Origin: Phoronis australis
Taxonomy: Eukaryota; Animalia; Phoronida
Assembly (NCBI GenBank): GCA_002633005.1
Contig: NMRA01000853.1
Location: 47,933 to 111,932, forward strand
DNA length: 64,000 nucleotides
Direction of reading: 5' to 3'
In this document: positions 1,734 to 59,384 of the stretch, in pieces
Layout: each line of letters starts with the position of its first letter
Numbering within the stretch: position 1 is the stretch's first letter
Program-made: the position numbers and the translations under genes
Notes under the pieces: model-generated
Told to the model about the DNA's origin: nothing
What the model saw: the letters and a program-made list of their open reading frames with translations, nothing else
The model's database searches: none

Positions 1734-1899
1734 GGAAAGAAAGGAATCATTACATTCCGCCACTGCACCTGGAAGAACAACCCCAAGCATCCCACAGGAC
1801 ATATCGATTTGTGGGACGGCAAGAACTGTAGAAACAAGTGTTACTTCAAAGAGTGTAAAGAGTATTGCTTATTCGAGATCCCCAAACCAAAAGCCTTCG
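1734..1899 (+). CDS. Gene 1 exon, type C (His-containing C-terminal third of a Tae4 domain, internal form)
   Basis: tttcag|GGA acceptor, TTCG|gtgagt donor; GKKGIITF...TGHIDLWDG. Confidence 0.9.
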
Positions 1900-4321
1900 G
1901 TGAGTATCTTAAAAGTCAAGTTAACTGCATAATGGCAGAGTGAATATTTATTAGACTCTCATGAACCTGAACAATGCCTTGAACGTTTTGGTGTTACTTA
2001 TTACACTTGTGTGTCTACTGTATTCACAGAACCCAAGTTTAATGACATCTGGAAGAAGTATCCGAATCCGAAGATTAAGAAACCCGCCATGTGGAAAAAA
2101 GCTGGGTTTGATCAGAAGTATCTATCACACTGGGACACCTGTGGACTGAGGTTTAGTTACGCCACCTATAGTTTAGGTAAGTGCCCGTATTGCATTGACA
2201 ACCAGTCAGAGTCTCATCAGGCACTACACACACCCGTTAGATGTTAAATTGGCTGTTAAAGATAGGACATCTGTTGGCTCATTTGTTGACTAACATACTT
2301 TACTGCCGAACGTATACAATGCAGTCGTACCGCCGAGGGCTGTCGTTCTGAATAGCAGTTTCCATGTAAGTGACTGTGTTTACCCTGAACCCGCGTTTGT
2401 GTGAATTGCGTTGAGCGTACCACGATCGTTTGAGACATCTACTAGTTTTTACGGTTTTGCTCCGAGTGAATTTGAATCATGTTATAAACTGTTTCTGATG
2501 ATACGATTGTCAAGTGCGCATGTCTATACGTGCGTTGTTACGTGCTGCATGGAAGAATTGCAATAAACCAGCAAACTTCGATATGTCTGTTTTGAGCGCG
2601 AGACGAGCTTTTTGAGAGACGTGGCAACCGTTTCACTGGCTTTGGTGAAGCTTTGATGAGGTGGGAAAAATTGCCACGCCTTGTTAAAGATGCGCAGGTT
2701 AAGGTAATTGTCAACCTTCGTGAAGCCTTTTTTAGATTCTATAAAACAACTTAACTGTATTTTTAAATGCTTGTCTTAAAGCGTGACTGCTCTTTTTGCG
2801 AAAGTTATCAATTTTAATTTAAACATGTATTTCTAGAAAATCTGACATTTGAAATACAATCGCACTTGTTCTTATTGCCAAATACACAGGGAGGTGTGTC
2901 TCAGTTTTTCATGTATTCAAAAAAAAAACAGTGAAATCTTTGTTGTTGGACGGAAAACGAAATATCGGGGATTTTTTTCCTCGGTCATCGAATCAACCAA
3001 GGCATTCAAGAGAAATCGACGTCCAAACCTTTTAAAGCGGCGAAAATCAAAAGACCTAGAATTGCCTGACGAAGGTTTTCCAGGTATTTGGAATTGATTG
3101 AAGTCGTTCAAAACAACTTGCATATTCATGTAATGCGTTTAAAGAAATATTATAGAAGAAATGAAAACATTCCACGAAAGTTGGAAATTTCCAAACATAT
3201 TTTCAAATTTTAAAGAATGTGTCTATGGAAGAGTGTGACAAATAACAATGGCCAATAATAACCATTAGTGATATTAGTAGTAGTATTAGTAATAGTATTA
3301 GTAATAGTATTAGTAATAGTCCTGTTGGGATATACCGATGATTATTGCATTTTAAGTTTATTTCCATGCAGTTTAGACTGACATGAACTATTTTTAAGAG
3401 GTGTAGATAACCCATAGCATTCAGATATAAGCATGCTCAAGAGAGTTCCCTTTTTTAATACATTTCATTTCAAGAAAAACAGATAATTTTATTATTGAAA
3501 TTACATCTTTAGTTCTACTTTAAAATGAAATACAGGCTTTGGTGAACACTCGGCGATGGGTACCACAATTTATGCTATGAACAGTTAACAGAGCTGATGT
3601 TGACCACTCCGTTCCTAATGACATCATGCCTGTCGTTTCTTGTTTTACTGCAGGCTACACGATTGGCATAACGAAAGCCGATAATTGTAACTGGTCGGGT
3701 TTTAAGAACAAACGGGGTCAGAAATACATCATCAGGGCGGACACTTGGCATTGTTATCTGACGAAGATACTCAAGAAACCACTGTGTGTGAAAAACAGAG
3801 CAAAGTTGCAGGTAATTCTCAAATTTTTTTCGGATTTCATCAAGTGTTGTTTTCTCTGAAGTTATTGATCCTTTTCCTATGTGCATGGTTCTCAGTGTGG
3901 AGTCGAAGACATTTTGTTTACCAAGCTGGATAAAAATATTCAATGCGTGTAGGACTTCGTCTGTGATATATCTGGTTCAGTTTCCCTCTCGGTACCTGTA
4001 CGTTAATTACGTGCTCATTTCGCATACTTACGTTATTGCGCACGTCCAAAATTATTCATAAAATTATGTCTTGTGTTTGTCTTATAGCGCGTTTTCAAAT
4101 TTCTTAGCGAAGCCAATAATGAAATTTCTCGCACAAATGTTATCATAAAGCAACTGTTGTTTCAGGGAAAGAAAGGGATTATAACGTTCCGCCACTGTGC
4201 TTGGAAACAAGACCCCAAGCATCCCACAGGGCATGTCGACGTGTGGAATGGGAAGAAATGCAGAAACAAGTGTTATTTCGACCAGTGCAAGGAGTTCTGC
4301 TTGTTTGAAATTTCGAAATAA
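1734..4321 (+). CDS. dae4: Gene 1: 5'-incomplete Tae4-like (domesticated amidase effector, dae4-like) multi-domain peptidoglycan hydrolase; exons 1734-1899, 2030-2176, 3654-3811, 4166-4321
   Basis: All four exons have canonical AG/GT boundaries with compatible phases (0-1, 1-1, 1-0, 0-stop). They splice to GKKGIITFRHCTWKNNPKHPTGHIDLWDGKNCRNKCYF...EPKFNDIWKKYP...WDTCGLRFSYATYSLGYTIG...GQKYIIRADTWHCYLTKILKKP...GKKGIITFRHCAWKQDPKHPTGHVDVWNGKKCRNKCYFDQCKEFCLFEISK*. Motifs match Tae4 as recalled from the Salmonella enzyme (PSFNEAW, NACPIRMSY, YIYRV..MIDYL....GKP, GKKGII, GHVTLWNG..C...C). Confidence 0.88.
2030..2176 (+). CDS. Gene 1 exon, type A (catalytic Cys, DTCGLRFSY)
   Basis: cacag|AA acceptor, TTAG|gtaagt donor; Cys codon TGT at 2140-2142. 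Confidence 0.9.
3265..3320. repeat. Low-complexity (AGTAATAGTATT-like) microsatellite in a gene 1 intron
   Basis: Tandem agt/aat/att triplets. Confidence 0.8.
3654..3811 (+). CDS. Gene 1 exon, type B (middle third of Tae4 domain)
   Basis: ctgcag|GC acceptor, CAG|gtaatt donor; YTIGITKADNCNWSGFKNKRGQKYIIRADTWHCYLTKILKKPLCVKNRAKLQ. Confidence 0.9.
4166..4321 (+). CDS. Gene 1 terminal exon, type C
   Basis: tttcag|GGA acceptor; GKKGIITFRHCAW...TGHVDVWNG...FEISK TAA; AATAAA at 4485-4490. Confidence 0.9.
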   Translation, partial: GKKGIITFRHCAWKQDPKHPTGHVDVWNGKKCRNKCYFDQCKEFCLFEISK

Positions 4322-15730: not shown

Positions 15731-15989
15731 TACGTGATGTTTCCTATAGCACGATTTTACTAGCTGCCAAAACGTTTCTATGATTGTTAACATTTTCAAT
15801 TAATTTCTTTTCTCAGGAAATCTTTAAATAGCTTTCTCTTGACTTAAAATCGCTTTGAATTTTTGTCGCAATTCTTTGTACTAAACACAATTTACCTGAT
15901 TATGATAGTTTCGGAAACCAGAAAACGCACAATTTCTCTCTCTTTTCAATGCCTCTAGCTCTTCATCCCACAACGATGAAAATTTCAAT

Positions 15990-17097: not shown

Positions 17098-18479
17098 TTT
17101 GAAAGAAGTGCATCTTCAGTCAACTTCTCCCCTTCACAAGGTTAACAAATAAGAGAAAACTGGTTTCACTTTAGTATTTTGTCCATTAAGTTATAGAAAC
17201 CTGCGAACTGAATTTCATGTCAGAAAGCCTCCGAGTCAGTAAAGCTATCACTATTTCCTGATTTTACGTCGTTTTCATGATACAGGAAATTTCTAAACAG
17301 TGGTCTGGGCAACAATGATTTCCCAGTTTTGTTACCCAACATGCGCCCTGCACGCAGTCTCGGAAAATATTAAGTTACTGTTTGTTTCCAAAAAAGCACT
17401 CATTGACTCTACTTTTTCGTTCTTTTCCGAAAATGCTCCCATGGGCGCTTCGTACAGGACTCCCGGTAACTGCCACTGTCACGAGCCCTGTCTACTTCTT
17501 AAGTATCCACTTCTTACAAAAAGCTGTAGAAGGGGTGCAAGTATGTGACAGTTATTTAATCGCGTATCCTTTAGTCATTCATAACGCGGAGCAAGGTCAT
17601 TGTCAGCCAAATGCATGGATTACAAAAAATTTTTGAACCGGGTGTTCTACAGTGATATAACATTTGTGTTGAGTTGACTGCAAATCCGAATTTTAATGGA
17701 GAGATCTAGCCTTATCTTCGAGAGCAATTCCTGATTTACAGCACCTAGATTCAACTATATAGCTGACTGGCTATTTGGGAACGCGCTCGCACCCACTAGA
17801 TTTATTATTCTACAACGGAAAACGCTGGACTTAAGACAGATTGCGGTCCCGGTTGTAACGAGCCATGACCATCGGCAACACCATTGCTTTGCAGTGAATA
17901 TAGCGACAATTTTCCTACGTTTACTGTTTGAATATTTCTTATCATCTCAGAGAGTAGAATCGCCAAAACACGATCAGTAATTATATTTTAACTATGTATA
18001 CAATTAAATATTAGAACGTTGTTTTGATCTGCTAATTCGGGGCATGAACACGGCTTTGTATTAGGCATTGGAGAGTGAACAATCCCCCGTGATGTACAAG
18101 CTTTGTTTCAGGGAGAACTTAATACTCATGAGTTTTGTAATTTAGTGTCCGTTTTTCCTCAATAAGCAACGTTAACGAAACAAACTACGAGAGTGACGTA
18201 CAAATAAACCTAAAAAGTCGTGTAGTAAAATGGTCTATCATGTCATGAGGTTGCACCTGGGTGAATGAAATCAAATATCGAATTACATACGTTCATACAG
18301 TTTTGCAACATTAGAAGAGAAGAATACATGTATTTGTTTCCATGTTCAGTCACTGATGTCAAGTACTCAGCAATTTGACATTGAAATGCGATTTAGATTT
18401 TACATCTGCCTCCTGTCTCCCCATACTGGAAAGAAATTGAAAACAACACACCTATATTTTAATATAACCACAGACTGAA

Positions 18480-36814: not shown

Positions 36815-36862
36815 ATGAAGAACGTCGTTGCATTGCTTTTCTTCCTCGTTTTGGAGCTACAG
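36815..36862 (+). CDS. Gene 2 exon 1: signal peptide MKNVVALLFFLVLELQ
   Basis: AAGATGA start context, basic N-terminus plus hydrophobic core, CAG|gtttga phase-0 donor matching the next exon. Confidence 0.65.
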
Positions 36863-39800
36863 GTTTGAAAAGTTAATTCAAAATTAATTATTTGTTGTCA
36901 TATAATCGGTGTTACTTTCAGAAAGCATTTTGGGGATTATTGTTGGACGAGATAGATTTCTTGAAGTTCCTTAGCTTTCACCATAGCTGTAAACAAACAA
37001 AATCTCAGTGTTTTGAGGACTTTTCAAAAAGAAACACCAATTACCACAGTTGTCCTCCAGAGATTCGTTGAAATCAAAGCCGTTGCCTTTACCATAAAGA
37101 GACCGTTAAAAGACCTGCAACTTAACGCGTTGGTTTTGAGGCTCAGCGGTAGCGTGTCCGGTTGTTACTACGGTAGTAGTAGATTCGATTCCATACTGCT
37201 TCTAATTTATATGAAGTTTCTTTTCTAGCAGAGAATCTCCCCTGGAGGCTCACTTCCTTCTTCCTTGTGTACTCAATATAGAAGATATGAAATAGCATCG
37301 TTCGTTTCCCCTACATTTCTTTAATAGTAATAGCAGAAACACGTAAAAACGTTTAGGTATAATGAGATATCTTTTAGATACAATTCACTTATCTAAGTAT
37401 CACCGATAACAAGTTACAGGCAAGCATGTTTAATCTGGCCTTCCAATTTATATATGAATGAGTTTTACTTGTGTGCTACTACCATATTCTATCGAGAATC
37501 TATTTCAGCTAGGAAGGTCCCAACGAGACCAAAACTTTTTTTTGTCTTTACAAGTCCAGAGTTCACTCAGATTTGCATAGGTCCTCCCACTGCCCTGCCA
37601 TACAGCAAATCAATGGGTGAAAATCTTGTGCATCACTCTCGGACTTCCCGCCCTTTTGCGATCGTCTCGTCTCCTGGTAGATGTCACAAGATCTGCTCAA
37701 TAGAATCCCTTCAGATGCCACTCCTAGCCAATACAAGTTGCTGGTGGTACGGTCAGTTGTCTTCCTAACACCGAGATATCCTCCGTGGGTAAGCCTCGTT
37801 ACGGCTTAATAGGCACGACAACTTGTTTCACGTCATCTCCATCCTTATTCTTGAACAGCCGATACAGTATCCCTCGCTTGACCTCCATCAGCCTCTGGTC
37901 TGTCATTCGACTTTTGCTTCTGCTTGACCCCAGAGCTATTTTGAGGATAATCTTCTTCCTAGACTTCCTTGAACTGTCGAAGTTCCATGTCCTGTGTGGA
38001 ATGGGACTTCGGTCTTCTAGACTTTTTCGAACACGTATCAACCCATATGTTAGGAATTTTTTAACATATTTTTGGGTGTTAAAATCAAGTTGTTGTTAAT
38101 TTGATTTCTAAGCACTGATATTTTAAGTAGTATTTACATATACCCGTGAATTAAAATTTTAAAAATGCCTGGTAAATGGATCCAATCCAATACTTTGTGT
38201 TACAGACAGCGGACACCACTCTTCCAGCGGACACCAGGCCAACAACGTCTTCAACGAGCATGCCCACTGCGCAATCGCCGCCCTGTAACGAAACAAAGAA
38301 AATAGCAGGTATGACCAAAAGCTTTTCACAAATGGGTCCTTTAAATCGCGCTGACTGCACGTTTCGGGATACAACCCTTCAGAAATATGGTTGAATACTC
38401 TCGAGGAACAGGGACTAGGTGGGATATCTGCAACTAGGTATCTAGGTAATAGTGAACATTTTTCATCTGTTCACAGGACGTTGTCAGTAGTCGATGTGCG
38501 CTTTAATCCTGTAAATACAATGCTATTTTCCAGTCACCACGGTGGAACACTCAAAATTGTACGATGACACGTGGCTTACCTCAATTTCTAAATGCCAGTT
38601 TACAATCTTTGTAATTGGCCCAATATGTTGCCCTCCCAGCAGAACTATTGGAGAAGGATAATGTCAGTACACTATTTTCTAGATTTAGGTTATAAAAGCT
38701 ACATTTCTTGTCCGATTTTCAAAATTCAAACACCTAACCATGTGCATCCAATTATTACGTTACTAAAAACTATCTGATGGATATTCAAAAACACTATTGT
38801 CGTCCCGAATGTTTATAACTATGTTTGAGATGTTCAAGTTCGCACCTGATTACCCAAGTTAATCTCCAAACGATTATAACATCAGCAGAAGGTGGATGCT
38901 CTCTTTGAAGCTAGCGGCAGGTATGGTTATCCTACCGGTCAAATTGAGGCGAGGGTGTCGATCACGTAGGATTCATTTCATGACAGAGTTACAGTCGACA
39001 TCCAGAATTTGACGAGGTTTTGTCATAGGTCATGCTTATTCCTACACTAAATTTTTGACTAAATTTTTGTCTAAATTTCACCTGCTGTGTACCATTTTTG
39101 AAAATTAGCAGACATGTAAGAGTTATTTCGCAAATTTGAAAACATTTGCTGGGCCTTTGAGGCCATTTTGAACGCTGACAAGTCAGCTGCAATGCAGAGG
39201 GGTAATCTTACCGTGATGTCGGAAATAATTTTCACGGTAGCCTCTACATTTTGAGGGTATAAATTCAAATAACAGGCACTATGAGCCCAGACGTTTCGAA
39301 AAGTAGACAACAGCCAGTCCTAACCTATTCTATTTAGTCTGCAATGCGAGAAGAAATACAGGTGCAACTTCATAATGTACAGATACTTTTGCAGATTTCA
39401 AGTTCAAAGTCGACTTGTGGGCCAAGTACCCAGACCCAAAGACGTTTCCGAAGGCTGATATGTGGAAAAAGGCGGGGTTTGATAAGAATTACGGAGACAC
39501 ATGTGGGATGAGATTTAGCTACACCCTTTACCAACTGGGTGAGTAGAAACTCATGGTCGAGTGATGCATTTATAATCACGTTCTGAACTCGAAATTGGTC
39601 AATTAACCAAGTCAATAATATAGAAATATAGATCGATCACGAGCGTAATATCAGGTGTATAGAGCAAGGGAGAGTAATGTTGCCGGTTGCCTGACACTGA
39701 TTTTTGATTGGTAAGTCATTTCAAGCTTTGATGAGCTGCCATCCACTGCTCGGTAAGTTTAATTACGAGCTCAGGATTATCATGCCAATATTTGTATGAT

Positions 39801-42800: not shown

Positions 42801-45800
42801 GAAAATGGAGCCGCCAAGAGTCATCACCGTGTATACGTTTTTCCCTTCTGCCGGGTTTAGCTGCCTAAGTGTGCTACAAAAAAATGGCGGACGTTTGCGA
42901 AATATGATCAAAAGGTCCACCATTTAAGAAATTCGAACCACCCACAGAGCAGTGCTGGCTACGGGCCGGGAATAAAATTATAGTTCGGTCAAGTTGCACG
43001 CCATGTTCAAAACGCGCTTTATCGGCACGACCAAGCATTGGCTTACTGCAATACTCCAAGAAAATGTCGTTAAAACCGTCAACGAAACAAATAGTATGTT
43101 TTCGACTGAAGTCATCAATTGGATCATTCTTTTAAAAAAATTCAGTATCATCGAAACGAAAATGCATCCCTCACTACAATTTTTGAAGAATATCAAATTT
43201 GAGTGAAGCAGTATAACGTTGTTGCAACTTTTGTGGTGAATTCTGGGTCACTTGGATCAGTCCTTTTTGGACGACAGCGGCACGAGTTACGAATTTCAGC
43301 AATATTTTACATTAAAGTTTAATGAGACATGAGTTTGACTACTGTTTAGTGTGAGTCAACATTTTTCACTACAATTTAATCACTCAGATGTTTCTAATTG
43401 ACTGATAAAAGCCCACAATTCCGTTACCGGCAGCATGACGACTCCCTCCTTCTCTCCCTTCCTGCCTCTCTCCTTCCGTGTTTCTGTCAGAAAGGTAGAT
43501 TTAGTTCTTTTGAACATCCACGCTGACATTTTCATTGTTCTAAAGCTTGCGGGATTTAGTTAAACGCTATAACAGTTACCACAACCAGTCAATAACTTCT
43601 GCGACGTATTTTCATTATCATATGGTAAAAGCCTTTGAACTTCAATTTTGAGAACAAGTTGTTATTATTTCTTTTTATTCAGACAGTGGCGGATCTACGG
43701 GGGGGGGTTCAGGGGGTTTAAACCCCCCCCTCGGGCCAGGACCCAAAAATTAAAAAAACAAAAAACAAAACAAAAACGTCTCCAGCAAAACAAAAACGCC
43801 GGCACCGCCAGCGTGTGTAAACCCCAAGTAAACCAACCTGGAAAAAAATGAGGGGGGGTTCACTCTGAAAATATATTTTTTGCATTGTGAATTGCTGTTA
43901 TGAAAATCAACGCGTTTCGAGTCTTCGTGGCTCATCGACAAAACCCCGGAGATCAATTGTGCGCGCGCTTCCGACGACACTTCTGAAGTAGCCAAGCATT
44001 TTAGATGGATCCACCGCTGAAAGAGCAGCTCTATAGCTGATTTCTTTAGATAACTAGCTTCTTTACTCTAAGATATGTTTTGATTTGATTAGGGAAATAC
44101 TGTGGTGCCCCAACCCTGATATTCAGGCGAATTGACGTGCAACGTTTTTACCTCATCTGTCATGCCGTGTCATCGTATTACACCCCACACGTTTGAAACT
44201 CGAATTTGAGTGGTGTACAGTAAAGTTGTCTTGCGCAATATCATACGGTGTACATGTACATGTAATACTTTTGAAAAAAACTTGTTTTCCGAAGAATTGC
44301 TATTGTGGCGGGCGCCGTGGTCTGGTCGCGAGTCTGTTTGAAGATGCACTCTAACAAGTTTTGTCTATACAAGGAATGACCAAGGGGGCACTCACATTGA
44401 CAAAGTGACCGCATTCGCGAACAGTTTACAGTACCAGAAATTGCGGGGAGCCTGTATTTTCACAACAAAGTCTTGCGGGACTCGTGCGATGTTCAATGGG
44501 CCTCCTAAGGAGCCCTAGTGCCGACCTCAACACCTACCGTCTTTCTACCTGCAATAAGCACCACTGCCGTTTTCTATACTGGGAATTTCCGCAGAAAGGC
44601 CCAACCGACGAAACGCCCATGCTCATGGGCATTTATTTGATGTTTGTACTTCGGGTTTCAAGCGTTCAGACACTGGGACGTTTATTTCGAAAATTGCAAG
44701 AGATGCAAATGGGTCCTGGGATACATCGTCAAGGTTTGAAGTAGTCCATGATGAACGGATCAAATTTAGTTGCGCATGCTGTAAGTCTTTTGAATGGACT
44801 TGGTAACCTCAGGGGGCTTAGTGCCAACTGAGCTGCGAAACGAGATGCTGACAATGTAGAGGCGTACAAGCTCATTGACACAGCAGTTGACGAAGTGCAA
44901 GCGTTGGGAACAAACGTCGAAGATGTCTGGGTAGAATGGTTCCAAGAGCAGCAAACCATTGGATCCGATGTACAGATTCCTCGGCAGTCTAGACAACAGA
45001 AAGATAGGACCAACGTTCCTGGAGAAACACCCAGGTAATAAGTTATAATTATACACAGTTTGTAATAATGTCGGTTTTTTATGCTTGTGTACAATGAAAA
45101 CGAAATAGAAATTATTTTTGGACATGCCAAATTTACCCAGTACAGCAGAGGGTCTACGAGAGCACAGAAACTGATTCTGGTTTGTATTTCCACTTGAGTC
45201 TATCTGCTTCATATCCAAAATCTTATTTCACGTAGTGCGTAGTTAAATCTGTACTCCATACTTGTTTCTTCCAGTGAGTACTACAGAACGGTGCGAAAAC
45301 CCTTCCTAGACAACCTCTCGCAGCAGTTACCACCAGATGTATGAACTACACGTATGAGCATCCACTGGGGATTAAAAAGTGTCTAGAGAGAAGTTTTCAA
45401 TTCAAAATTTTTCGCAAAGTACGCTTTAGGTCTCGCGACGGACCAGGCCAGCTTGATTTGTGTAGATATCGAGTTTCAGTGTACTTCTGGTCCCTCGGCG
45501 AACTAGACTTGTGATGTTTTTTACCAAAGTGTGCTTTGTAAAACTATTTATCTCAGCCAGTACTGTTTGGTCCCGCGACAGATCGACTATTTTATAGGGA
45601 TAACAACCAGAGGTGTACTTTTGGTCTCGTGACGGACCAGGCCAGAGTTTTTGTGTACTCTCAGTGTACATCTGGTCCCTCTGCGAACTGCTCCTGTGTA
45701 TCTTTTCATCACGGTGTAGGCCTACAGAGTGTCATGGTTTCGTGAAACTGTTTTCAGATGATTTGTTTCCTGATACATTTGACGTTTTTCAATTGTTGTC

Positions 45801-48800
45801 AACGTGATTCAGCTTAATAAAGTGATACTTAATTGTTTTTGTCGCTTTTAGTAATAAACTATGAGCTGAGAGCACCATCGTTCGCCAGTTTTTCTCGTAA
45901 CGAGACAGAACACACGTTTATTTCCGGACTAACAGTACAGGTCTTCGTTCTTAAACAGCTTGAGGCTGTTGCGATCATCTTATATTCAAGTTTTTACGCC
46001 CCGTCGGTGCTCCTTATGCTCTTGAATATTTGGTAATTTGGTAGTTGTCTAAGCCCCTGTGCACAAATCACACTTTTTCGTATGCTAAAAAGGTGCGTGT
46101 AAGCAGATGTTCCAACAAAAAATTTTGCTGGTGGTGTGACTCATACTCAGATGTGCACAAATACGGTTTCACGAAACTTATGAGCCAAGTTCATGTGAAG
46201 AAATCGAGAAGGGCTTTTAATTATCTTAAGAAAAATTCCTGTTAAGTGCCAGAAACGTACCAGGATGCATGGAAATTTCACTGTTTGGCTAGAAAAATAA
46301 AAAGTTATCTTAAACGGGAGGGAGGTTTACCCCCCTCCCGACCTCCCCCCGCTCGGCGCTACGCGCCTCGGATTCGACCTTTGCGGGAATCCTACTGAAA
46401 ACGTAGATCCGCCACTGTTCAGAAATATTTTTGTTACCCTTTTCGGATCCATAACGGTTTCCCCAGTTTCACTGACAATTGGCCCTTGATGATTTCATTT
46501 CTAAATGTTCACAGGTATGCTAACCTTTTCAATTCCTATTGTTGGCCTGTCTTTTTACTCCCATACCCACATTTCTAAGGCTCAAAATTCCTGGGCCGCA
46601 ATGTTAGCTGTCTCCCCGGCCTGGTGCTAACACCAGTTTTAATTAATTTCCTAATACTGTTAATAATAATTAAACATATCCGTATGGGTAGGTTCGAATG
46701 GAAGCCTTCTTAGTTTAGACGATATTTTACAGGCTACAAGATATGCATCACGAAAGCTGATAATTGTAACTGGTCAGGCTTTAAGAACAACCAAGGTAAA
46801 AAATACATAATCAGGGCTGACACTTGGCATTGTTACCTGATCAAGATCTTCAAAAAGCCACTCTGTGTAAAGAAAAAAGAAAAATTAGCGGTAAGTTATG
46901 CAGATTTAACAGCTACAAACATGGCAAGTCATAGAAGCTGATACGCGCACTTTGATCACTCAAATTGCCCGTTGTGAGAATGCCTCAGTGTCTTTGGAAT
47001 TCAAGTCCAGGGCACTTGACAATGGCACAACTTAACAGTTAAAAAAATAAAATAGTATTCCAGATCTTCCTGCTTGCCGACCGCTTGATGACGACTAGCT
47101 GTATTTCTCTCGGTTTAGCTGACTTAAAAGAACGTAAACTGATTTCGCCTTTCTGTTCTCATAATATAGATCGCATAATATTCCTTACCGTGATAAGTCA
47201 TATTTCCATTACCAACTTAAACCACAGGCAATGCGTACATGTATGGTGGGCCGTTGAGGGGAAAGTGTCGCCGTAAAACTACGCTCGAAATTACGAGCGT
47301 AAATTAAATTGCAGGAGTGTCGCCGTACAATTACGCTCGTAAATTATATGGGGAAAGTTTCGTCGTAAAATTACGCTCGTAAAGTACCTTATGAACGTTC
47401 CAAATTTAAACCAATCAGTAATGACCTAACATACACGACTGTTGCTGGGCAGCTCGTTCTTGCACAATGGTTGACAGGGCAGCAGCGATTTGATCCGCCA
47501 TGATTCAACGCTCGTATCATAGACATGGAATAAATATTTCCATGAGCGCGCGCGATCTTGGATTGTAAAACCCAACGTCATTGGCTAAGAGTTTAAACTA
47601 AATTACGCTCGTAATTTTACGGCGTAATTAACGGCGTAAATAACGGCGTAATGTACACAATTACGCTCGTATTTTTCCGGCGACACTTTCCCCCCAGCGG
47701 CCCATCATATAGATGTGCTATTTTCGTTTGCGCAATTTTGGAGCTGGTCATCACAATGAATTCAGAAGCACTTTCTTGAGTAGCTGATGGTTCGATGTTC
47801 TTGTTGGTTACGGAAATCAAACTCTATCACTGCAAGGAATTCTTAGTAGCCGACTTCATAGAATTTAACATCCTAATTCGATTTTCGGTTTTCAACCATC
47901 TAAACAGGAATTTACACGGGTGATGAAGATTTATTTAATGCGGCAGCAAAATCAACTATTTTGTTATTTCACTCTACAGTATAGAAATGTTAAAGAAATT
48001 ATATCAAAATTATGTCTCACTCTTTTGACTGCTACGAGTTTTCGATGGACTCAGTTGGCAATATTTTTCAGGGAAAGAAAGGAATCATTACGTTCCGCCA
48101 TTGTTCCTGGAAGAATAACCCTAAGCATCCCACGGGGCATATCGACTTGTGGGACGGCAAGAAATGCAGAAACAAGTGTTACTTCAAAATGTGTAAAGAA
48201 TATTGCTTATTTGAGATCTCCAAACAAAAGGACTTCAGTGAGTATCTTTAAAAACAAGTTAACTGCACAATGGCAGAAAGATTACAAGTCTGAATATTTG
48301 TTGGCCACTCATGAACCTGAATTAACAATGCCTACAAAGTTTTGATGATGCCTATTTGATTCTTGCAATTTACTGTATTCACAGAACCCAAGTTTTATGA
48401 ATTCTGGAAGAAGTATCCGAATTTGAATATAACGAGGCCTGAAATGTGGAAAAAAGCAGGGTTTGATGAGAAGCACACACAATGGGACACCTGTGGTCTG
48501 AGGTTCAGTTACGCCGTCCACAGTTTAGGTAAGTGCCTCTACTGCATCGACAACCAGTTGGAGTTATATCACGTGGAGCACATACCCGTTAAATATACAA
48601 CTGGCTTTAGTGAATTCATTGATGAGGCGAGTAAAATTGTTAGTCTCTCCAAAGATGCGCTGGTTAAAGTAACGGAAACCTTCGTGAAGCCCTTTAGATT
48701 TCATAAAACAGCCCAACCGTATTTTCTGAATCCTTGATACCTTCAAGAAGAACCGCCTTTTCTGTAAAATTGTCATTTTTCATTTGAACATGTATTTCTT

Positions 48801-50392
48801 AACAAAATCTATACTTGGGTTGCTCCATGTTTGATTTTCTATGTATTTGGCATTTGGTCTTATTGTCAGCACCCGAAACTTTTTCTCAGTTTTCTCTGTT
48901 GAGCTGAGTATTGGCTATGGTTTCTTGTCATATTTTGATGTAAGTTTCCATACAGTTAGCTGTCTGGTTAGCAAATGATCATTATTCTTCACGTGATTCG
49001 ATGCAATTCAAACTGACCTAAACAACTTTTGAAGAAGTGTAGAAAACCATGCTCTTTTTAGCCTGGTATTGAAGCAAATGCAAATCCCCACAGCCTTCCC
49101 GTTTTGTGACATTCACGGATAGTTAGAAGTTTTGAAAATCAAATGGTTTTGTTATTGGAATTGAATTTTTTGTTCATCCATTTTAAAAGAAAATACAGGA
49201 ATAGTGAACATTCAGCGATGTTTATCACATTTTATGTTGTGAACAGTTCAAAGCGCTGATATTTACAACTCGTTCCCAGTGAAATTACTCCTGTCGTTTC
49301 TTATCTTACTGCAGGCTACACGATTGGCATCACGAAAGCCGATAATTGTGGCTGGTCGGGTGTTAAGAACAAACACGGTCAGAAATATATCATCAGGAAG
49401 GACACCTGGCATTGTTATCTGACGAAGATCTTTAAGAAACCACTGTGTGTGAAAAACAGAGCAAAGTTGCTGGTAGGTCTTATATACATCAATAACATCT
49501 TCTGTCTTCAGCAGTTGTCATTTTCTCTGAAGTAATTGACTTTTTTATGATAATTATGTGTATGCGTGTCAGTGTGGAGTTTTAACACCAGAAGTCATTG
49601 CGTGCTATTGCGACATCGGTTGTTTTGTTTAACCAAACCGTAATTACAATGTTACTGAAAGTATGCATACCTCACACTGCTGGTCGCTAAATGTTTTCCA
49701 ACGACTTATTTGACATGTTTTCAGGGAAAGAAAGGAATCATTACTTTCCGATACTGTTCCTGGAAAATTAACCCTCAGAGACTTACGGGACATATCGACT
49801 TGTGGGACGGCAAGAAATGTAGAAACAAGTGTTACTTCAAAAAGTGTAAAGAACATTGCTTTTTTGAGATCTCCAAAACAAATAAATTCGGTGAGTAAAT
49901 TAAAGGTCAAGTTAACTGCACAAATGGCAGAAAGGTTACAAGTCTGAATATTCATTAGCCACACAGGAACCTGAACAATGCCTTCAAATTTTATATGATA
50001 TCTATTACTCTTGTGGTTCTTTTGTTTTTCCAGAACCCTGGCTTAATGAAGTCTGGAAGAGGTATCCAAATCCAAATAATAGGAAGCCCGCAATGTGGGA
50101 AAAAGCAGGTTTTGATCAGAAGTACCTGTCATACTGGGATACCAGTGGTCTGATGTTTAGTTACGCCATCTATCGTGTAGGTAAGTGCATCTAATGTATT
50201 TCCAACCAGTTAGAGTTATATCACGCGGTACGCGCATTTGTTAAATGTTAAACTGTCTGAACGGTAGGACATCTGTTGGCTCGTTTGTTGACTTACCTAC
50301 TGCCCTGCTGCACCTGTACAATGTAGGCGTAGCGAGGGTTGCCGTTCTGAGCAACACTTTGCATGTCAGTGACCTTTGAATGACTGTGTGTG

Positions 50393-50440
<48 letters not shown>

Positions 50441-52277
50441 TGTGTGTGTGTGTACCCTGAACCCGCGTTTGTGTGAATTGCGTTGAGCGTCCCACGATCG
50501 TTTGAGACATCATCAAGTTTTTACTGTTTTGCTCCGACTGGATTTGAATCATGTTATAAACAGTTTCTGATGATACGATTGTCAAGTGCGCATGTCAATA
50601 GACGTGCGTTGTAAGATGTTATTGAGAAAATCACAATAAACCAGTAAACCTTGATGTGTCTGGTTCGTGTGCGAGACGTGGCAACCGTTTCACTGGCTTT
50701 GTTGAAGCCATTGGCGAGGCGGAAAAAACTGCCACGCCTTCTTGAAGATGCGCAGGTAAAGGTAATTGTCAACCTTCGTGAAGCCTTTTTATTTTAGATT
50801 CCATAAAACAACTTAACTGTATTTTCTGAATCTTTGTGACTGTCCTTTTTGCCGCGCGGAACTTATCATTTTTACATTGAACCTGTATTTCCAGAAAGAA
50901 ACTCTGACATTTGAATTACAATGCACTTGGCCTTATTGTCAAATACGCAAGGAACTGCGTCTCAGTTTTTCATGTATTTTCAAACAGAAGAGACGTCTCC
51001 GTTGTTAGACGGAAAACGAAATATGGGGTGGGGGTTCTTCAAAAGGCCTAAAATTCGAAAGTTTTCCAGGTATTTGAAATTGATTGAAGTCGTTCAAAAC
51101 AACTCGCATATTCGTGTAACGCGTTTAAAGAAACGTTATTCGGATGTGTAGTGATGAGGTGTCATGGCTGCAGATGACGCAATTTGGACCCGGAAATAAG
51201 AATGAACATGCCGTCACACTGGGTACAAAGCGTCATGCTAAAGAAAATTTTCCTCGAAAGTTGGCAAATACCTAACATATTTTTAGGTTTTAAAGAAGTT
51301 GTCTATGAAAGAGTGTGATTTTATGACCAAGGATAATAAAGAGGCGGTAGAAAAACCCATAACATTCAGATAAATGTACACTCAAGGGAGTTCCCGTTTT
51401 TTAATACATTTCATTTCACGAAAAACTGATGATTTTATAATTGAAATTACATCGTTAGTTCTATTTTAAAATCAAATACAGGAGTCAGTGAGCACTTAGC
51501 GATGGGAATCATATTTTTATTGTAACCACTTCAGAGCACTGATGCTAACCACTCTGTTCCCAATGAAATCATACTCGTCGTTTCTTATCTTCTACAGGCT
51601 ACACGATTGGCATAACGAAAGCTGATGATTGTAATTGGATGGGTCTTAAGAACAAACGGGGTCAGAAATACGTCATAAGGCCGGCCGCTTGGCAATGTTA
51701 CCTGACGAAGACCTTCAAGAAACCACTGTGTGTGAAAAACAGAGCAAAGTTGGAGGTAATTCTCAAATAACGTCTTTTGTCTTCATCAGGGTGGTGCTGT
51801 TTTCTGTGAAGTGATTGATCTTTTACCGATAACAATGTGTATGGTTCTCAGTGTGGAGACGATGACATTTTGTTTGCCAAGCTAAATAACAATATCAAAT
51901 GTGTGTATGCCTTTATCTGTGATATACCCTGTTTAGTTTTCCTCTGGGTGTTGTACGTTCATCCTCCACTCATTTGGCTCACTAACGTTATTTCGCATTT
52001 CCAAAGATAATCAGAAAGTTTTATCTTGTTTTTCGTCTTATAGCGCGTTTTCAAATTTCTTTGTGAAGCCAACTATGAAATTTTTCGCACAAATATTATT
52101 ATAAAGTAACTGCTGTTTCAGGGAAAGAGAGGGATCATAACGTTCCGCCATTGTGATTGGGACCAAGACCCCAATCATCTCCCAGGCCATGTCGACCTGT
52201 GGAACGGCAAGAAATGCAGGAACGGGTGTTTTTTCTACAAGTGCAAAGAGTTCTGCTTGTTTGAAACTTCGAAATAA
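36815..52277 (+). CDS. dae4: Gene 2: secreted three-domain Tae4-like (dae4-like) peptidoglycan amidase/endopeptidase, 515 aa; exons 36815-36862, 38206-38308, 39395-39538, 46733-46890, 48072-48237, 48385-48528, 49315-49472, 49725-49890, 50034-50180, 51598-51755, 52122-52277
   Basis: All 10 introns are GT-AG with matching phases; the exons sum to 1548 nt with no internal stop. Architecture: signal peptide, T/S/P linker, then 3x(A-B-C) Tae4 domains with DTCGMRFSY / DTCGLRFSY / DTSGLMFSY and GHIDLWDG / GHIDLWDG / GHVDLWNG. The first two exons are less certain than the domain exons. Confidence 0.87.
37580..38040 (-). mobile_element. Gypsy LTR-retrotransposon integrase-region fragment in intron 1 of gene 2
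   Basis: EVKRGILYRLF...KQVVVP, RSCDI, FSPIDLLYGRAVGGPM remnants. Confidence 0.6.
38206..38308 (+). CDS. Gene 2 exon 2: Thr/Ser/Pro-rich linker with single Cys
   Basis: ttacag|ACA...GCAG|gtatga; TADTTLPADTRPTTSSTSMPTAQSPPCNETKKIA; phase 0-1. Confidence 0.7.
39395..39538 (+). CDS. Gene 2 exon A1 (catalytic Cys TGT 39502-39504)
   Basis: ttgcag|AT...CTGG|gtgagt; FKFKVDLWAKYPDPKTFPKADMWKKAGFDKNYGDTCGMRFSYTLYQL. Confidence 0.9.
43684..46417 (+). mobile_element. hAT-family DNA transposon (15-bp TIRs, 6-bp TSD TTCAGA) containing a decayed transposase, in the gene 2 A1-B1 intron
   Basis: CAGTGGCGGATCTAC ... GTAGATCCGCCACTG, with TTCAGA on both sides; internal remnants LS..LQ...D.VEA, RQ..R.NVPGETP|SEYYR....PFLDNL. 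Confidence 0.8.
46733..46890 (+). CDS. Gene 2 exon B1
   Basis: ttacag|GC...GCG|gtaagt; YKICITKADNCNWSGFKNNQGKKYIIRADTWHCYLIKIFKKPLCVKKKEKLA. Confidence 0.9.
47242..47709. mobile_element. MITE with ~32-bp TIRs and internal TTACGCTCGTAA/TTACGAGCGTAA repeats
   Basis: TATGGTGGGCCGTTGAGGGGAAAGTGTCGCCG ... CGGCGACACTTTCCCCCCAGCGGCCCATCATA; absent from the homologous gene 1 intron (~1430). Confidence 0.8.
48072..48237 (+). CDS. Gene 2 exon C1
   Basis: tttcag|GGA...TTCA|gtgagt; GKKGIITFRHCSWKNNPKHPTGHIDLWDGKKCRNKCYFKMCKEYCLFEISKQKDF. Confidence 0.9.
48385..48528 (+). CDS. Gene 2 exon A2 (catalytic Cys TGT 48492-48494)
   Basis: cacag|AA...TTAG|gtaagt; PKFYEFWKKYPNLNITRPEMWKKAGFDEKHTQWDTCGLRFSYAVHSL. 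Confidence 0.9.
49315..49472 (+). CDS. Gene 2 exon B2
   Basis: ctgcag|GC...CTG|gtaggt; YTIGITKADNCGWSGVKNKHGQKYIIRKDTWHCYLTKIFKKPLCVKNRAKLL. Confidence 0.9.
49725..49890 (+). CDS. Gene 2 exon C2
   Basis: tttcag|GGA...TTCG|gtgagt; GKKGIITFRYCSWKINPQRLTGHIDLWDGKKCRNKCYFKKCKEHCFFEISKTNKF. Confidence 0.9.
50034..50180 (+). CDS. Gene 2 exon A3 (catalytic Cys replaced by Ser, AGT 50144-50146)
   Basis: ttccag|AA...GTAG|gtaagt; PWLNEVWKRYPNPNNRKPAMWEKAGFDQKYLSYWDTSGLMFSYAIYRV. Confidence 0.9.
50385..50453. repeat. (TG)n/(GTGC)n microsatellite
   Basis: Direct reading; the homologous gene 1 site (~2375) has only TGTGT. Confidence 0.95.
51598..51755 (+). CDS. Gene 2 exon B3
   Basis: ctacag|GC...GAG|gtaatt; YTIGITKADDCNWMGLKNKRGQKYVIRPAAWQCYLTKTFKKPLCVKNRAKLE. 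Confidence 0.9.
52122..52277 (+). CDS. Gene 2 terminal exon C3
   Basis: tttcag|GGA; GKRGIITFRHCDWDQDPNHLPGHVDLWNGKKCRNGCFFYKCKEFCLFETSK TAA. Confidence 0.9.
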   Translation, partial: GKRGIITFRHCDWDQDPNHLPGHVDLWNGKKCRNGCFFYKCKEFCLFETSK

Positions 52278-52950
52278 CTGTTTGTCCGTGACTTCACCAC
52301 CTCACTTGGCTGTTGTCCACGTAGAGGCAGAATATGTCAGTGTGGTTCACGTTCGAGTTATCTGTAATATAGGCTACTTGAGCAGATTAAATGTTAGAAC
52401 ACCTTGTTTTGGGGGTTGTAACAAAATGAACATGCAAATTGTGGCGTTGGGGCTTCTTTCTTATTTGGCAAGTTGAGCAGTGTTTGTATAGTGCTTCTAT
52501 CTCATGTAAACAAAAGACAAAACAAAAGGAGTGCACTGAACCCATAATTAGCAGGGTCACCTGTTGATTATATACCTGTATAGCTCTTTGGATTGTGTCC
52601 AAGTCTATTGTAATTTTAAGGAGAAATGGTTATTGTTTCCGGTTATATAGGAGAAAAGAGTCAGCAAGGGCGGACCACGGGCGTTGATAATTCCTAGCAA
52701 AAATGTTGGAACTTTATTTAGGTTTAATTGTGCATGATAACTCCTACGTGAACTGTTTTTCGCATGGACTACCAGAATTCTTTGCGAGTTTCTTTTTATG
52801 GTATCCAGGTTCTTTCTGTTCTGTGGTTGCGCTTATAAAACCGTTCAAAAGTGAAGCGTTTTATTGCATTTAGCTATTGGAGAATAAATACATTTACTGA
52901 AAGCGTGTTAGCTTAATATACTGTCGTCATATGATTCAAAGTTCGTAACA

Positions 52951-54536: not shown

Positions 54537-56869
54537 ATGTCGGACTCTGAATAAAGCACTCACTTGAACAAACTGGTAATACATAAAAGCCCCCAAGCCC
54601 TATAAGCTTGCTACTGACCCTCAAGTGGAAACTGTGGAAGCAAATATATACAAACTGTACTGCGTAATAACTGAACTTGACGACTGGTACGGTGGCGTAC
54701 AAACGTGCGTTTTTAATCTCTGTGGTGGGCACTGAAGCACTCGAACTGTTCAGCACCTGTGATCCCAAAGACCCAGACACCCCCACCAATATTTTAAGAA
54801 AGTTTGATAACCGCATTCTCGGAAAGATTAAGGAAACTTTTCAGCGTTATCGTTTTAGTGCACGAAGTCAACAGTGGAGAGAATCGATTGACACTTACCT
54901 CGTTGAACTGAAAAAAATGCAAAAATTTGCAACTTCTGTGAATGTCTACAGGATACCCTCCTGTGCGATCAGTTAGGCTTGCTTGACCCGAAAACCAGAA
55001 AACGCCTACTACAGGAACCAAATCTAACACTTGAGCTCTTAGTTGACATTTGTAAATCTTATGAAACCACGGACACTCAATTACGCCAGGACGGGAAAGA
55101 ACGACAAACGGCCTCAACGACGTCAACACGCAGAAAAAAAGTAAAAACTCAGCACAAGGTTTCTTGTACTCAAAACAAAACTGTGCCCGTCATACGGCGA
55201 ATCACGTAACACTTGTCATCAGAAAACCATTTTGCAGGTTCAGAGTAGTGAAAAACACCCATCTTACCACTCTCCCCAAAAGGAGTGTGCCCACACAGTT
55301 CATGACACAAGTGATAGCTCTGACGGTGAACCGATAAATGCTGTTAATACACATATTAACCCAACTGATAAACCACTATATTGGCAGATGCTGGTGGAAG
55401 GGCAACCTGTCAAATACATGATGCGCACTCTGCCTCAAAAACTAGTCCCCCAGGCAGCGCCAGTTATTAGTTACTTTGTCATTGTTGTGGCACATACGTT
55501 TGTGCGACCCCTGTCGAGTCGTCTGCTTCTCCCGCTTTTGTATCACGAGTTTGCGTTTGAATACAGTTGCATATTTCGCTGCACTTTGGTGTTTGTTTGT
55601 CTACTGGCGCAGTACAAAACAAAACGAAACCTCCGTCAATATCACTTCTCATGTTGAACAATGCGAAGTTCCAACCAACTGGGGGTGTGCTACTTATAGT
55701 AAAATCTCTAAAAACAACAACACTTTCGACAACAACCTTACACCACTCCTTGGATCACCCATTATCGAGATGATGGGTCTGGTAACAGTCAACTACGAGA
55801 CCGTCATGCAAGTGAACACTGTACTAGAAGAATCAAAACTCTTCCAACATCAATCATTCCCTGTCGGACTCGGAAAGTTACCTGGCATAGTCCAATTGAA
55901 GTCGCGACACGATGTAAAGCCTTTAATCTGTCCACCACGCAAGCTGCCTGTGTCACTGAAGGAAAGCACGTACGGAACTGAACAGAATGATGCAACTTGG
56001 AGTCATCGCTAAGGTTGACGAACCATCCAACTGGGTCAGTCAGATGGCCGTCAGTTTCAAACGCTCTGGTGAACTACGCACATGCATACACCGACGACCA
56101 CTCAATGCAGCCCTCAAGCGGGAACACCTCCAGTTACCAGTCATGGATGATCTTTAACCAAACCTTGTGAATGCCAGAGTTTTTTTTTCAAAATTAGAAT
56201 TCACAAGTCGGTACTGACATTGCGATTTTTCAGAAGTGCCTGCTTTTAGCTGTGAATGGTCTGGACGATGTTTTCTGTGTGGCCGACGACAGCGTCATCT
56301 ATGGTGTTGGCGGCGATATACAGCAAGCTCATGTCGATCATTACTCAAAGTTAGAGTCATTTCTCAAACGGTGCACCGACCAGGCATCCGTCTAAAGAAG
56401 AAGTGTGAGATCTGTGAAGCAGAGATAGCTTTTCTGGATCATCTCCTCACATCAGATGGATTGAAGATCGACCCCTGACAAGTGTGCTGCTATCCTTGAT
56501 CTACATACCGCCACCAATGTTGAAGAAGTGCAACGTCTCAATGGCATGGGAAACTATCTCGCTAAGTTTCTACCACGACTATCTGATATGATGGAACCTA
56601 TTCGTCAACTCACACGACAAGATGTTCCATGGCACTGGTCGCACGTTCAAGATGAAGCACCTCTTCTTAGCTACTACAGCCCCCAAAAAGAACTGGTTAT
56701 CCAGTGTGATGCTTCGGACAAAGGCCTCGGTTCTACCCTGTTTCAGAAAGGCAAGCCTTTCGCTTTTGCCAGTCGTGCATTGACCGATAGAGATATTAGG
56801 TATGCACACACAGAGATTGAGACTCTAAATGATGTGTTCGCACTGAACAAGTTTCGTGAGTACACCTAG
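54537..56869 (+). mobile_element. Decayed Ty3/Gypsy gag-pol (gag, protease, RT, RNase H)
   Basis: AFLISVVGTEALELF, RYRF..RSQ...ESIDTY, PPRKLPVSLK, EPSNWVSQMAV, LNAALKREH, QRLNGMGNYLAKFLP, IQCDASDKGLG..L.Q.GKP.AFASRALT. Confidence 0.88.
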
Positions 56870-57215
56870 TAAACATACAGGTATTGGACCCTGAGCTGTT
56901 TTCTGTATTGGCCTAATGGTGTAGGCCAGAACTGGCCCAATAACATTTTGCACACCTACTCGGTATTGGGCCGGTATAAGATTGCGATATCGGGCCAGTA
57001 AAGGGCCAGTACCAGGCCATTACTGGGCCAATACACAAAAAAAAAACGGTTTCGGCCCTATAAAGGGTCAGTATTGACAGACTGTGTTGGCCCTGTACAG
57101 GGCCATTGATGGGCTCATATTAAGCAAGTATACTAATTACATAGGCGAAAGTGCAGTGGTGGGCCACTACAGTGCCAATATTGAACCACTAATGTTGCCT
57201 TTACAGGCCCAGTGC
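56866..57215. repeat. Array of short GGGCC/GGCCC(A) subterminal-type repeats; probable non-autonomous DNA-transposon end truncating the Gypsy element
   Basis: Many TATTGGGCC/GGCCCA/GGGCCAGT motifs starting where the RNase H ORF stops. Confidence 0.5.
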
Positions 57216-59384
57216 AGGAATATTACTGTTCGTGGGTATAACGAAACAACAGATTTGTCTTTTTCAATGCTTCAGGTTTTTAATTCCTACAACGTTCGTT
57301 TTGTTGGTCATTTCAATCCTACTGCATGTGCAGCTGTGACTTACAAGAAGAAAAGGCTCTTGTTCTTTAATAGTACCTTTATTACCATGAAACTGTTAAG
57401 GTAAAATACTTACAAAAATGACGAATTGTATAAATAAAAACTAAGCAAATAATTATTTGTTACGAAACTGTCTCGGGCTTGTTAGTGGACTGGCAGCTTC
57501 ACACAGTCTTCGCCCTCCCTCTATGTCGCCAGCGTTTCGGAACCTGGTGCCGGTCTCTTGCTATAAAGCTTCTATTAGCATTACTGTGTTCCTTGATCAC
57601 AATCTCTGAAATAAAACAACGCCTGCTTAGTATCTCAGAGTACAAACTAACAGATTCCCTGTATATTTTTAGATAAGTAATGCATAATAAGAATTACCTA
57701 ACGACAGTGTATACCATTCCAACACGAAATTTATTTGAAATGCATAATCTGCAAGATAATTATATAAATGTTTCATCCTTTGTTAACACAAGTATTACAG
57801 CTGGTTGTAAGACTTTACTTTCTTGTAATGAATATTTTCAGAAGTGACTTTTTGTTCATTTCTTTTCTTCCCAAAATGTCTATTTCGTTACCATTTAAAG
57901 ATTCCTAAAAATACTTCACAATCTGTTACAAAAAGTCTTGCGAGCATCAACTGATGGTTTTGCTCTGTGTTTACACACCATTGACACTGATGTGACCTTT
58001 TCAACTTCGTCCCCACGCCTCAAGATGGCGCTGATCGGTTTAGCCATTTGAGGCTTGGTTATGGCAATTACTTTCTGCGCAGTGATTGACCGATGCCTTG
58101 ATGTCATTGAACAAAGGCAGGTTATAATTATTTTCACATTGTAGCCATTCAAGCGAGAGAAGGCATTGTTTTAGTTTTTGTCTGAAATAAAGGTTGTACT
58201 TGTTTTCAATTCTTATTTATGAATAGTATTAATCTGTTTTCGAATGGAGTAAAAGAATAGTTGTTTCCAATGTTCAATGACTAACGTCAAGCACTCAGCG
58301 TTTTGGCATTGAAATGTTGTTCATACTTAGCATCTGTCTCCTGTCACTCCAGATTGGAAGCAATTGAAAACAACACTCCCATATTGAAGTACGTGACATT
58401 AGTCATAACATACATGTCCGTCGCCTCACAAACAGGCAAATAGCAAGCCGTGGCATTATAATCACGGCTTGTCACGTAGGCTTTGCAACCTGAAAAATAA
58501 ATTCCGATTCTGTAAATAGCTTTCAAAAATTATGTCATTGACTGCACCTGACTGACCTTTCCGTTACCGCCGAGTTCACCGGGTCAAAAACTTTGCGGGA
58601 CTGCGCGAGATATTGCTAGGTATTTTAAATTGGAGCACGTGATTTTGGCAAGATATTACTAGCAGCAAGACAGCTATTAATCTATACCCTGATTGGTCTG
58701 CAAGTTGAAAGTTAGTCGTCATCGGGAACCAGTCAGATGTTTTAGGGGTTGACCGGGGGAAATTGACGAAGTAATGAAATGCAGCCATGCTGCATAAGGT
58801 GGAAAGTGTTAACAAAAAATATTCTGAAAACTGAAAGCCAGAAAGAAAATGGTATGAATTGGAACTACTGGTTGCTTTTTTGCTATTTCAGGAATCCCAA
58901 AGTTACGCTCTGTGGTAAAACAAAAAAGTGTTTGTTATTTTAATAGTCATCATTTACTCAACTGTCAATTGTTATTCTACTTTGAGTTTTGAGTCCTGGG
59001 CAATATTAAATTGTAGTTCGCAAACCATAATTTCAGGTCAAAAACGGTGTTTCATCAGAGCCCCTGCCATCTACGAAATTCATATAGCAGTTGTGCCAAA
59101 CTTGATCGTAGGAGGGACTTCAATCAATTACCATTCACGTGTCACGCAATGTATTCGAGAGTTTCGGCTACATTTTAAACGTGTGTGAGGTATGCATTCT
59201 TTGCATACTGCGTCACAATGTTGACCTACATTTTCGCTTTCAGTCTTTTAAGATAGTGGTTAAAACCACGTAAGGACAAAACGTGAGTTTTAATCGTCAA
59301 TTGACTGATCGTTAAATATACGCAACTTCTTTTAAAATAGTTTTCGGCAGTTTCGCTACCAAAGAGAAGATTTACCTTAGTGCA

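Follow-up and report, generated by a model that had tools for sequence, protein, structure and literature searches.

We analysed a window of 64,000 nucleotides from the phoronid Phoronis australis (GenBank assembly GCA_002633005.1, contig NMRA01000853.1, positions 47,933 to 111,932 of the forward strand), which contains two related, intron-containing genes on the plus strand that are likely animal Dae4 genes. Gene 2 encodes three repeats of a Tae4-type peptidoglycan amidase domain. In the third repeat, domain 3, the catalytic Cys codon is replaced by AGT (Ser) and the Arg three residues downstream (Cys+3 Arg) by ATG (Met), so that exon A3 reads DTSGLMFSY, compared with DTCG(L/M)RFSY in each of the window's three remaining A exons. 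Judged from its sequence, domain 3 is very likely catalytically inactive; it nevertheless keeps an open frame, its splice sites and an unchanged central sheet. The reading that we favour, and to which we give about an even chance, is that domain 3 is folded but inactive and is carried along as a passenger by a peptidoglycan amidase that has three domains and is probably secreted.

Gene structure and family assignment

Gene 2 starts with the ATG at 36815, ends with the stop codon at 52277 and consists of 11 exons, namely S, T and then three copies of a three-exon unit A-B-C. The spliced product is 1548 nt long, with 515 codons and no internal stop, and all introns have a GT donor and an AG acceptor. 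The two 5' exons, S and T, are putatively placed by phase and splice signals, and the hydrophobic run in exon S suggests a secretion signal. No membrane or signalling part is present in the 515-codon frame. Linker exon T carries a single Cys, and domain 1 has an extra one (YKICIT, exon B1); disulfide pairing between them is a speculative possibility. Gene 1 is visible only as its last four exons, 3' of an N gap. Sequencing reads came from DNA run X1, which is possibly the assembly's own sample and then no independent support, and from RNA runs X5, X6 and X7, which are three other samples, chosen by species label, of which 18-19% of each was read (about 35 million records). The exons and diagnostic codons are as follows.

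36815..36862, + strand: gene 2 exon S; ATG, 16 codons, signal-peptide-like; GT donor, open frame; trace RNA depth only
38206..38308, + strand: gene 2 exon T; linker rich in Thr, Ser and Pro, containing a single Cys; AG/GT ends, fitting in phase; trace RNA, mostly X7
39395..39538, + strand: domain 1 exon A1; TGT at 39502-39504 encodes the catalytic Cys
46733..46890, + strand: domain 1 exon B1; placed by sequence and splice fit
48072..48237, + strand: domain 1 exon C1; catalytic His; purifying selection; Pfam Tae4 E=6e-7; exon-C nonsynonymous divergence (dN) about 0.008
48385..48528, + strand: domain 2 exon A2; TGT at 48492-48494 encodes the Cys
49315..49472, + strand: domain 2 exon B2; placed by sequence and splice fit
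49725..49890, + strand: domain 2 exon C2; altered loop before the His (NPQRLTGH); Pfam Tae4 E=8e-7
50034..50180, + strand: domain 3 exon A3; covered by a DNA contig and 2 RNA reads
50144..50146, + strand: AGT (Ser) at the catalytic Cys position; aligns with nvDae4 Cys63; X1 contig and X7 reads agree
50153..50155, + strand: ATG (Met) in place of the Cys+3 Arg; exon A3
51598..51755, + strand: domain 3 exon B3; carries IRPAAWQ
52122..52277, + strand: domain 3 exon C3; contains the complete core sheet of 22 residues and the stop codon; His encoded at 52188-52190 and Asp at 52194-52196
1734..4321, + strand: gene 1 tail; exons C 1734-1899, A 2030-2176, B 3654-3811 and C 4166-4321; Cys codon TGT at 2140-2142

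The Pfam family PF14113 (Tae4) is matched by all five C exons and by none of the eight A and B exons taken singly. Exon C3 scores E=1.4e-5 and 25.6 bits, a lone exon below the 27-bit whole-domain cut-off, and the spliced domain 3 matches animal Dae4 proteins at E ~1e-24. Sea anemones, acorn worms and amphioxus supply the named relatives among the best matches, which are of Dae4 type and 30-41% identical. A structure model of an anemone homologue (P0006; mean predicted local distance difference test score, pLDDT, 91) finds solved Tae4 structures as its top matches, AtTae4 first, with E down to 5e-10. Based on this homologue model and on the conservation of the sheet, domain 3 likely retains the Tae4-type NlpC/P60 fold. 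A word-index search with the four A exons (33 candidates) and a sequence search of the PDB returned no match, and no proteins of Phoronis australis or its close relatives turned up in the protein searches, in which the best identities were 30-41%. Among longer proteins there were seven matches, of which the amphioxus one alone is named as animal, which is weak evidence. Gene 2 has introns and a signal-like exon, as would be expected of a Dae gene; RNA amounts to only two reads on exon A3 and trace depth elsewhere.

Domain 3 has lost the catalytic cysteine

An earlier note on this DNA had described domain 3 as a Tae4 domain that lost its nucleophile after internal duplication, and the sequence bears this out: both substituted codons are present in exon A3, and the equivalent terminal domain of gene 1, the sister of domain 3, keeps the Cys (TGT 2140-2142). 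The position aligns with Cys63 of nvDae4 from Nematostella vectensis, whose Cys63-to-Ala mutant is reported as inactive (10.1101/2021.05.13.443009), and also with the N-x-C-x-I-R motif of Tae4 structures. In a set of 148 database domains, which contains near-duplicates, 16 fall short of this column; the other 132 have Cys (125), Ser (2), Tyr (1), Leu (1, in a poor alignment) or a gap (3). The Cys+3 Arg is invariant, being found in 65/65 homologues (alignment A5). Two homologues outside the window, P0018 and P0031, have Ser at the catalytic position; each is a single-member cluster, and one is named from a Planctomycetota bin.

Other features described in the earlier note hold to different degrees. 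The motif changes from IRADTWH to IRPAAWQ and from WKQDPKHPTGH to WDQDPNHLPGH stand in comparison with the last domain of gene 1, and so do the intact frame, splice sites and catalytic His, as seen in the 1548-nt open join, the GT-AG introns and the retained G-H-V-D. This motif holds both the catalytic His and the Asp two residues on (His+2 Asp), which corresponds to the triad arrangement described for AtTae4 and Ssp1 (PMC3852654, PMC6277958). The eight Cys said to be structural and intact are all present, against nine in the last domain of gene 1, but their structural role is only suggested by conservation (6/8 are shared by 70% or more of the animal homologues after weighting). The changes said to cluster in domain 3 are in excess there (p=4e-4) but show no more clustering along the sequence than chance would produce (P 0.27-0.92).

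The Ser codon is found in reads as well as in the assembly. A 591-nt X1 contig (depth 26) spans the codon with no differences. Two further X1 contigs, which align with 80% identity or better, represent A exons of paralogues and have T at 50144. In RNA run X7, 2/2 reads at least 99% alike to exon A3 keep the A at 50144, end at the A3 donor and then continue into other sequence as spliced reads would, although the two are possibly from one molecule. Run X6 yields five reads on A3, all of a Cys-type paralogue, and X5 none, which is no test. The Ser allele is thus present in a second sample, and exon A3 is transcribed at trace level. An assembly error or a private allele is an unlikely source of AGT, given the X1 contig and the two X7 reads.

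Domain 3 evolves near neutrality outside its central sheet

We examined how domain 3 has changed since it parted from its sister. Both the codon tree and the A-B and B-C introns place domain 3 together with the last domain of gene 1. Using a codon branch model, we found that the ratio of nonsynonymous to synonymous change (dN/dS) on the domain 3 branch is 0.94 (profile interval about 0.4-3.4), compared with a background of 0.19 (p=4e-4) and indistinguishable from 1 (p=0.91), whereas the sister domain has a ratio of 0.10. Adding one column to the alignment gives 0.82-0.88 for domain 3. These models cover four complete domains of about 150 codons each, so that power is low, and gene conversion could affect the tests. 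The domain 3 branch carries 34 inferred amino-acid changes and the sister branch 4; divergence of the introns and 3' flanks, about 0.11 substitutions per site per branch, predicts 32-36 changes without selection. Sites conserved across the family are not significantly spared (8/46 changed versus 26/106 others, p=0.23), and those changed include F3L, C37S, R40M, T122P and Y138F (domain 3 numbering). Relative to the sister, Lys plus Arg fall from 32 to 27 and Asp plus Glu rise from 10 to 13, in a family whose members in this window are basic (isoelectric point 9.5-9.8).

Domain 3 is, however, not decaying freely. It has no stop codon, where 2-3 would be expected under neutrality (probability of none 0.05-0.10), and no frameshift, where about 3.6 would be expected at the intron indel rate (probability of none 0.028). 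Retention of its eight other Cys is not significant alone (P 0.10-0.14). With secondary structure assigned from the P0006 model, none of the 22 residues of the central sheet is changed, against 4.7-5.3 expected (P 0.003-0.006, for one of 11 classes tried), and dN/dS is near 0 in the sheet, as in the other domains, versus 1.04 in the rest of domain 3. The unchanged sheet and intact frame reject free, pseudogene-like decay, and they uphold the view that domain 3 is still selected as a folded protein.

In contrast to the sheet, the active-site groove is altered. Using crevice walls whose boundaries were drawn by hand, after the changes had been seen, from elements named for StTae4, we count 17/55 changed sites versus 17/97 elsewhere (Fisher p=0.046). 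The dN/dS of the crevice is 1.44, compared with 0.21 in the other domains (p=0.0002) and 0.63 elsewhere (p=0.019), and it does not differ from 1 (p=0.47). Positive selection on domain 3 receives no significant support from a branch-site test (p=0.41), with low power from four domains. The crevice of StTae4 is described as a conserved element tied to substrate specificity (PMC3695027), and Arg53 of Ssp1, which corresponds to the Cys+3 Arg, is listed among the residues touched by the active-site-blocking inhibitor Rap1a (PMC3852654). Groove change alone is no mark of lost function, because groove loops are reported to be remodelled in tick Dae2, among active domesticated enzymes (10.1101/2020.04.10.036376).

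Domain 2, which keeps its Cys, is accelerated as well. Its dN/dS is 0.49 versus 0.14 (p=0.03), which is indistinguishable both from 1 (p=0.27) and from domain 3 (p=0.50). Together with the altered loop before its His, this suggests that constraint loosens progressively along the chain, from domain 1 through domain 2 to domain 3.

A proposed role for domain 3: an idle, folded passenger

The sequences show that, after the gene was duplicated, the sister copy of domain 3 stayed under purifying selection, while domain 3 lost the Cys and the Cys+3 Arg and changed almost neutrally outside the central sheet, with frame, splice sites and sheet kept. To account for this, we propose that the two upstream Cys-bearing domains made the activity of domain 3 redundant, which would release the active-site groove and the surface from constraint. 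Selection would still purge stops and frameshifts upstream of the last exon junctions through nonsense-mediated decay of the shared mRNA, as well as changes that unfold the Cys-rich tail of the secreted chain and so cause its retention in the endoplasmic reticulum; this part of the account draws on how nonsense-mediated decay and quality control in the endoplasmic reticulum generally work. Peptidoglycan would be cut by domain 1 and perhaps domain 2, and any residual affinity of domain 3 for the cell wall would be incidental. A binder that uses the old groove should keep that groove. Since the groove of domain 3 is its most altered part and positive charge has been lost, redundancy is the simplest account.

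Several points weigh against an idle passenger. A dN/dS near 1 can average purifying and positive selection, and the changes in domain 3 are slightly more conservative than neutral ones (mean BLOSUM score -0.09 versus -0.59, P=0.046). All of the sheet is encoded by the last exon, and stops there would escape nonsense-mediated decay, so conservation of the sheet needs a reason at the level of the protein, and a real binding or decoy function would explain it as well as folding quality control does. Domain 3 keeps the His, the His+2 Asp, the Arg of the IR motif and the aromatic core, and Ser is the mildest replacement of Cys. There are also suggestive precedents by analogy, in that RipD is an NlpC/P60 domain turned non-catalytic binder and the Cys-less paralogue of Nematostella is reported to be immune-induced. 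The sheet result comes from one of several classes tried and the crevice was drawn post hoc, and no orthologue in another species was found in the protein searches.

Alternative readings

The broader idea that a toxin domain is turning into a recognition part within the same chain, its fold frozen and its groove rebuilt by selection as a cell-wall grip or an inhibitor decoy, is one we consider possible but less likely than not. In its more specific form, domain 3 would be a selected, non-catalytic module for peptidoglycan binding or targeting, which would keep both active domains tethered at the cell wall. The conserved fold and frame, the retained His and Asp and the isosteric Ser would suit such a role, as would transcription of A3 in a second sample, with two reads ending at the splice donor. 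RipD offers a precedent (PMC12067865), and both Nematostella tae4 homologues, one of them Cys-less, are reported as induced by cyclic GMP-AMP (cGAMP; 10.1101/2021.05.13.443009). We consider this role unlikely. The earlier note had proposed that domain 3 became a peptidoglycan-binding or sensing module and had itself named a dN/dS near 1 as evidence to the contrary; the observed 0.94, with the crevice as the least conserved part, does not support the proposal. The crevice changes include the invariant Arg and a Pro adjoining the His strand, so the groove is not conserved under purifying selection as would be expected for a RipD-like binder, and net positive charge is below that of the sister. 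Moreover, two of the seven possible single-base missense changes of TGT lead to Ser, so that its presence calls for no particular cause; relaxation extends to domain 2, and gene 2 is barely seen in the three RNA runs.

This scarcity of RNA bears on a further reading, that the whole of gene 2 is a little-used paralogue in early decay and domain 3 its most degraded part. At a diagnostic site in C1, the RNA reads all carry the non-reference letter (11/11, 5/5 and 5/5), which is that of the gene 1 exon C, so gene 2 would be nearly silent in the sampled libraries; two A3 reads among all records sampled, and a domain 2 ratio indistinguishable from 1, point the same way. We regard gene-wide decay as quite improbable, however, in view of the 515 open codons, the full set of splice sites, the low dN of exon C1 and the unchanged sheet of domain 3. 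In addition, nvDae4 is reported to be inducible (10.1101/2021.05.13.443009), so low counts from libraries of unknown tissue or state say little.

It is still less probable, in our estimate, that the groove was remodelled by diversifying selection, either to accommodate a different ligand or to lure away bacterial inhibitors of the Tai4/Rap type, which block the active sites of Tae4. The frozen sheet beside a crevice that changes faster than sites elsewhere, and several changes from Lys to acidic or neutral residues, would fit this, and inhibitors are described to bind the corresponding face in bacterial Tae4 (PMC3852654, PMC6277958). Yet neither the crevice ratio tested against 1 nor the branch-site test is significant, and the crevice boundaries were set after the fact. 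For a decoy, no report of Tai4-type proteins inhibiting animal Dae4 was found in the literature searched, which makes that step speculative.

That domain 3 still works as an enzyme, by a Ser-His-Asp triad in the papain-like fold, is highly improbable: the His and His+2 Asp match the AtTae4/Ssp1 triad and P0018 and P0031 share the Ser, but exchange of Cys for Ser nearly inactivates papain-fold enzymes, exchange for Ala abolishes the activity of nvDae4 and StTae4, those two homologues are single-member clusters, and the surrounding groove of domain 3 is eroded.

Other features of the window

Around gene 1, positions 3748-4510 and 4512-5274 form a 763-nt direct duplication with 98.3% identity and a single N between the copies, in which the final exon C and a portion of exon B are repeated; it likely represents two haplotypes joined by the assembler. 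X1 also contains a variant C-exon contig at depth 196 (window position 48092), as well as an A-exon contig of the Cys type (50062-50188, depth 46) whose intron start is unlike any in the window. Both contigs suggest that more Dae4 repeats lie outside the window; the N gap at 98-993 is a possible place for them.

Downstream of both genes there are patches of 69-77% identity (5182-5687 versus 52438-52949, and 22949-27447 versus 58816-63696), which suggest that an ancient segmental duplication took in far more than the genes themselves. The 7-kb A1-B1 intron holds high-copy repeats at 41716-47700 with RNA on both strands, part of which recurs at 59382-61822, and the A3-B3 intron holds a (GTGC)n microsatellite of about 16 units at 50388-50450 that is absent from the matching intron of gene 1 and is a possible allele marker for gene 2. 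Broken frames at 15909-21016 and 54794-60056 resemble, by eye, reverse transcriptase, retrotransposon protease/RNase H and transposase. No other host genes are evident by eye in the window.

Comparison with known systems

Dae genes are weapons that animals have acquired from bacteria, and the fate of their extra copies is little studied; a single paper with data on Dae4 was found in the literature searched. A close counterpart of the window genes is nvDae4 (LOC5507694), of the animal family of Tae4-derived secreted amidases, whose Cys63 aligns with the Cys/Ser column. Nematostella is reported to have two tae4 homologues, both induced by cGAMP, only one of which has the catalytic Cys (10.1101/2021.05.13.443009). 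We infer that the paralogue LOC5507684 (P0047) is the Cys-less homologue of that study; it has Tyr at the catalytic column, compared with Ser in domain 3. The Nematostella genes are single-domain, whereas domain 3 is a dead repeat among three in one chain.

Tandem Tae4 domains in one animal protein, as in gene 2, occur in Branchiostoma (XP_078604954.1 and XP_035684889.1), with about 33-36% identity to the window domains. All complete repeats of these proteins keep the catalytic Cys, and they are near-identical to each other and acidic, in contrast to the basic domains of the window; the longer protein has an extra N-terminal domain. The Branchiostoma proteins P0043 and P0068 show that an amphioxus Dae4 can have an N-terminal domain ahead of its three acidic Tae4 repeats; the name given to a related protein is 'C-type lectin domain-containing'. 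This would be a separate route by which Dae4 gains a possible recognition module.

Bacterial Tae4 proteins (AtTae4, 6IJF; StTae4, 4J30/4JUR; EcTae4, 4HFK; Ssp1, 4BI3) share the NlpC/P60 papain-like fold, Cys-x-x-Arg and G-H-x-D with the Dae4 family. They are injected, single-domain and active, with immunity partners, whereas domain 3 lacks the nucleophile and the Cys+3 Arg. RipD of Mycobacterium tuberculosis (Rv1566c) is reported as an NlpC/P60 domain that binds peptidoglycan without catalysis (PMC12067865). It resembles domain 3 in the loss of a catalytic residue and, as the conserved sheet suggests for domain 3, in a retained fold. RipD is described, however, as encoded by a gene of its own, with an Ala-Ser-Glu triad, that is conserved throughout Mycobacterium (PMC12067865), a long-term conservation that domain 3 does not show, and it belongs to a different NlpC/P60 branch (Foldseek E=0.58 against the Dae4 model). 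Non-catalytic PGRP receptors, which have the Amidase_2 (PGRP) fold and are linked to signalling, provide an analogy only, as Pfam gives Tae4 alone for the window exons and no PGRP family.

The locus offers a natural comparison of a conserved Cys-bearing sister, a partly relaxed domain and a dead domain, all close enough for changes to be counted. If domain 3 is idle, it illustrates ordinary redundancy after domain duplication and cautions that an intact frame and fold prove no new job; if it binds, it would be a compact example of an enzyme turned recognition module. No dead Dae4 repeat inside a multi-domain Dae4 was found in the literature and protein databases searched, a scope that excludes most subscription papers and the original Dae paper, which may list more Cys-less members. 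Cys-less Dae4, tandem Dae4 and a non-catalytic NlpC/P60 binder are thus known already, and what appears to be new here, from the sequence at hand, is a dead repeat within a multi-domain Dae4.

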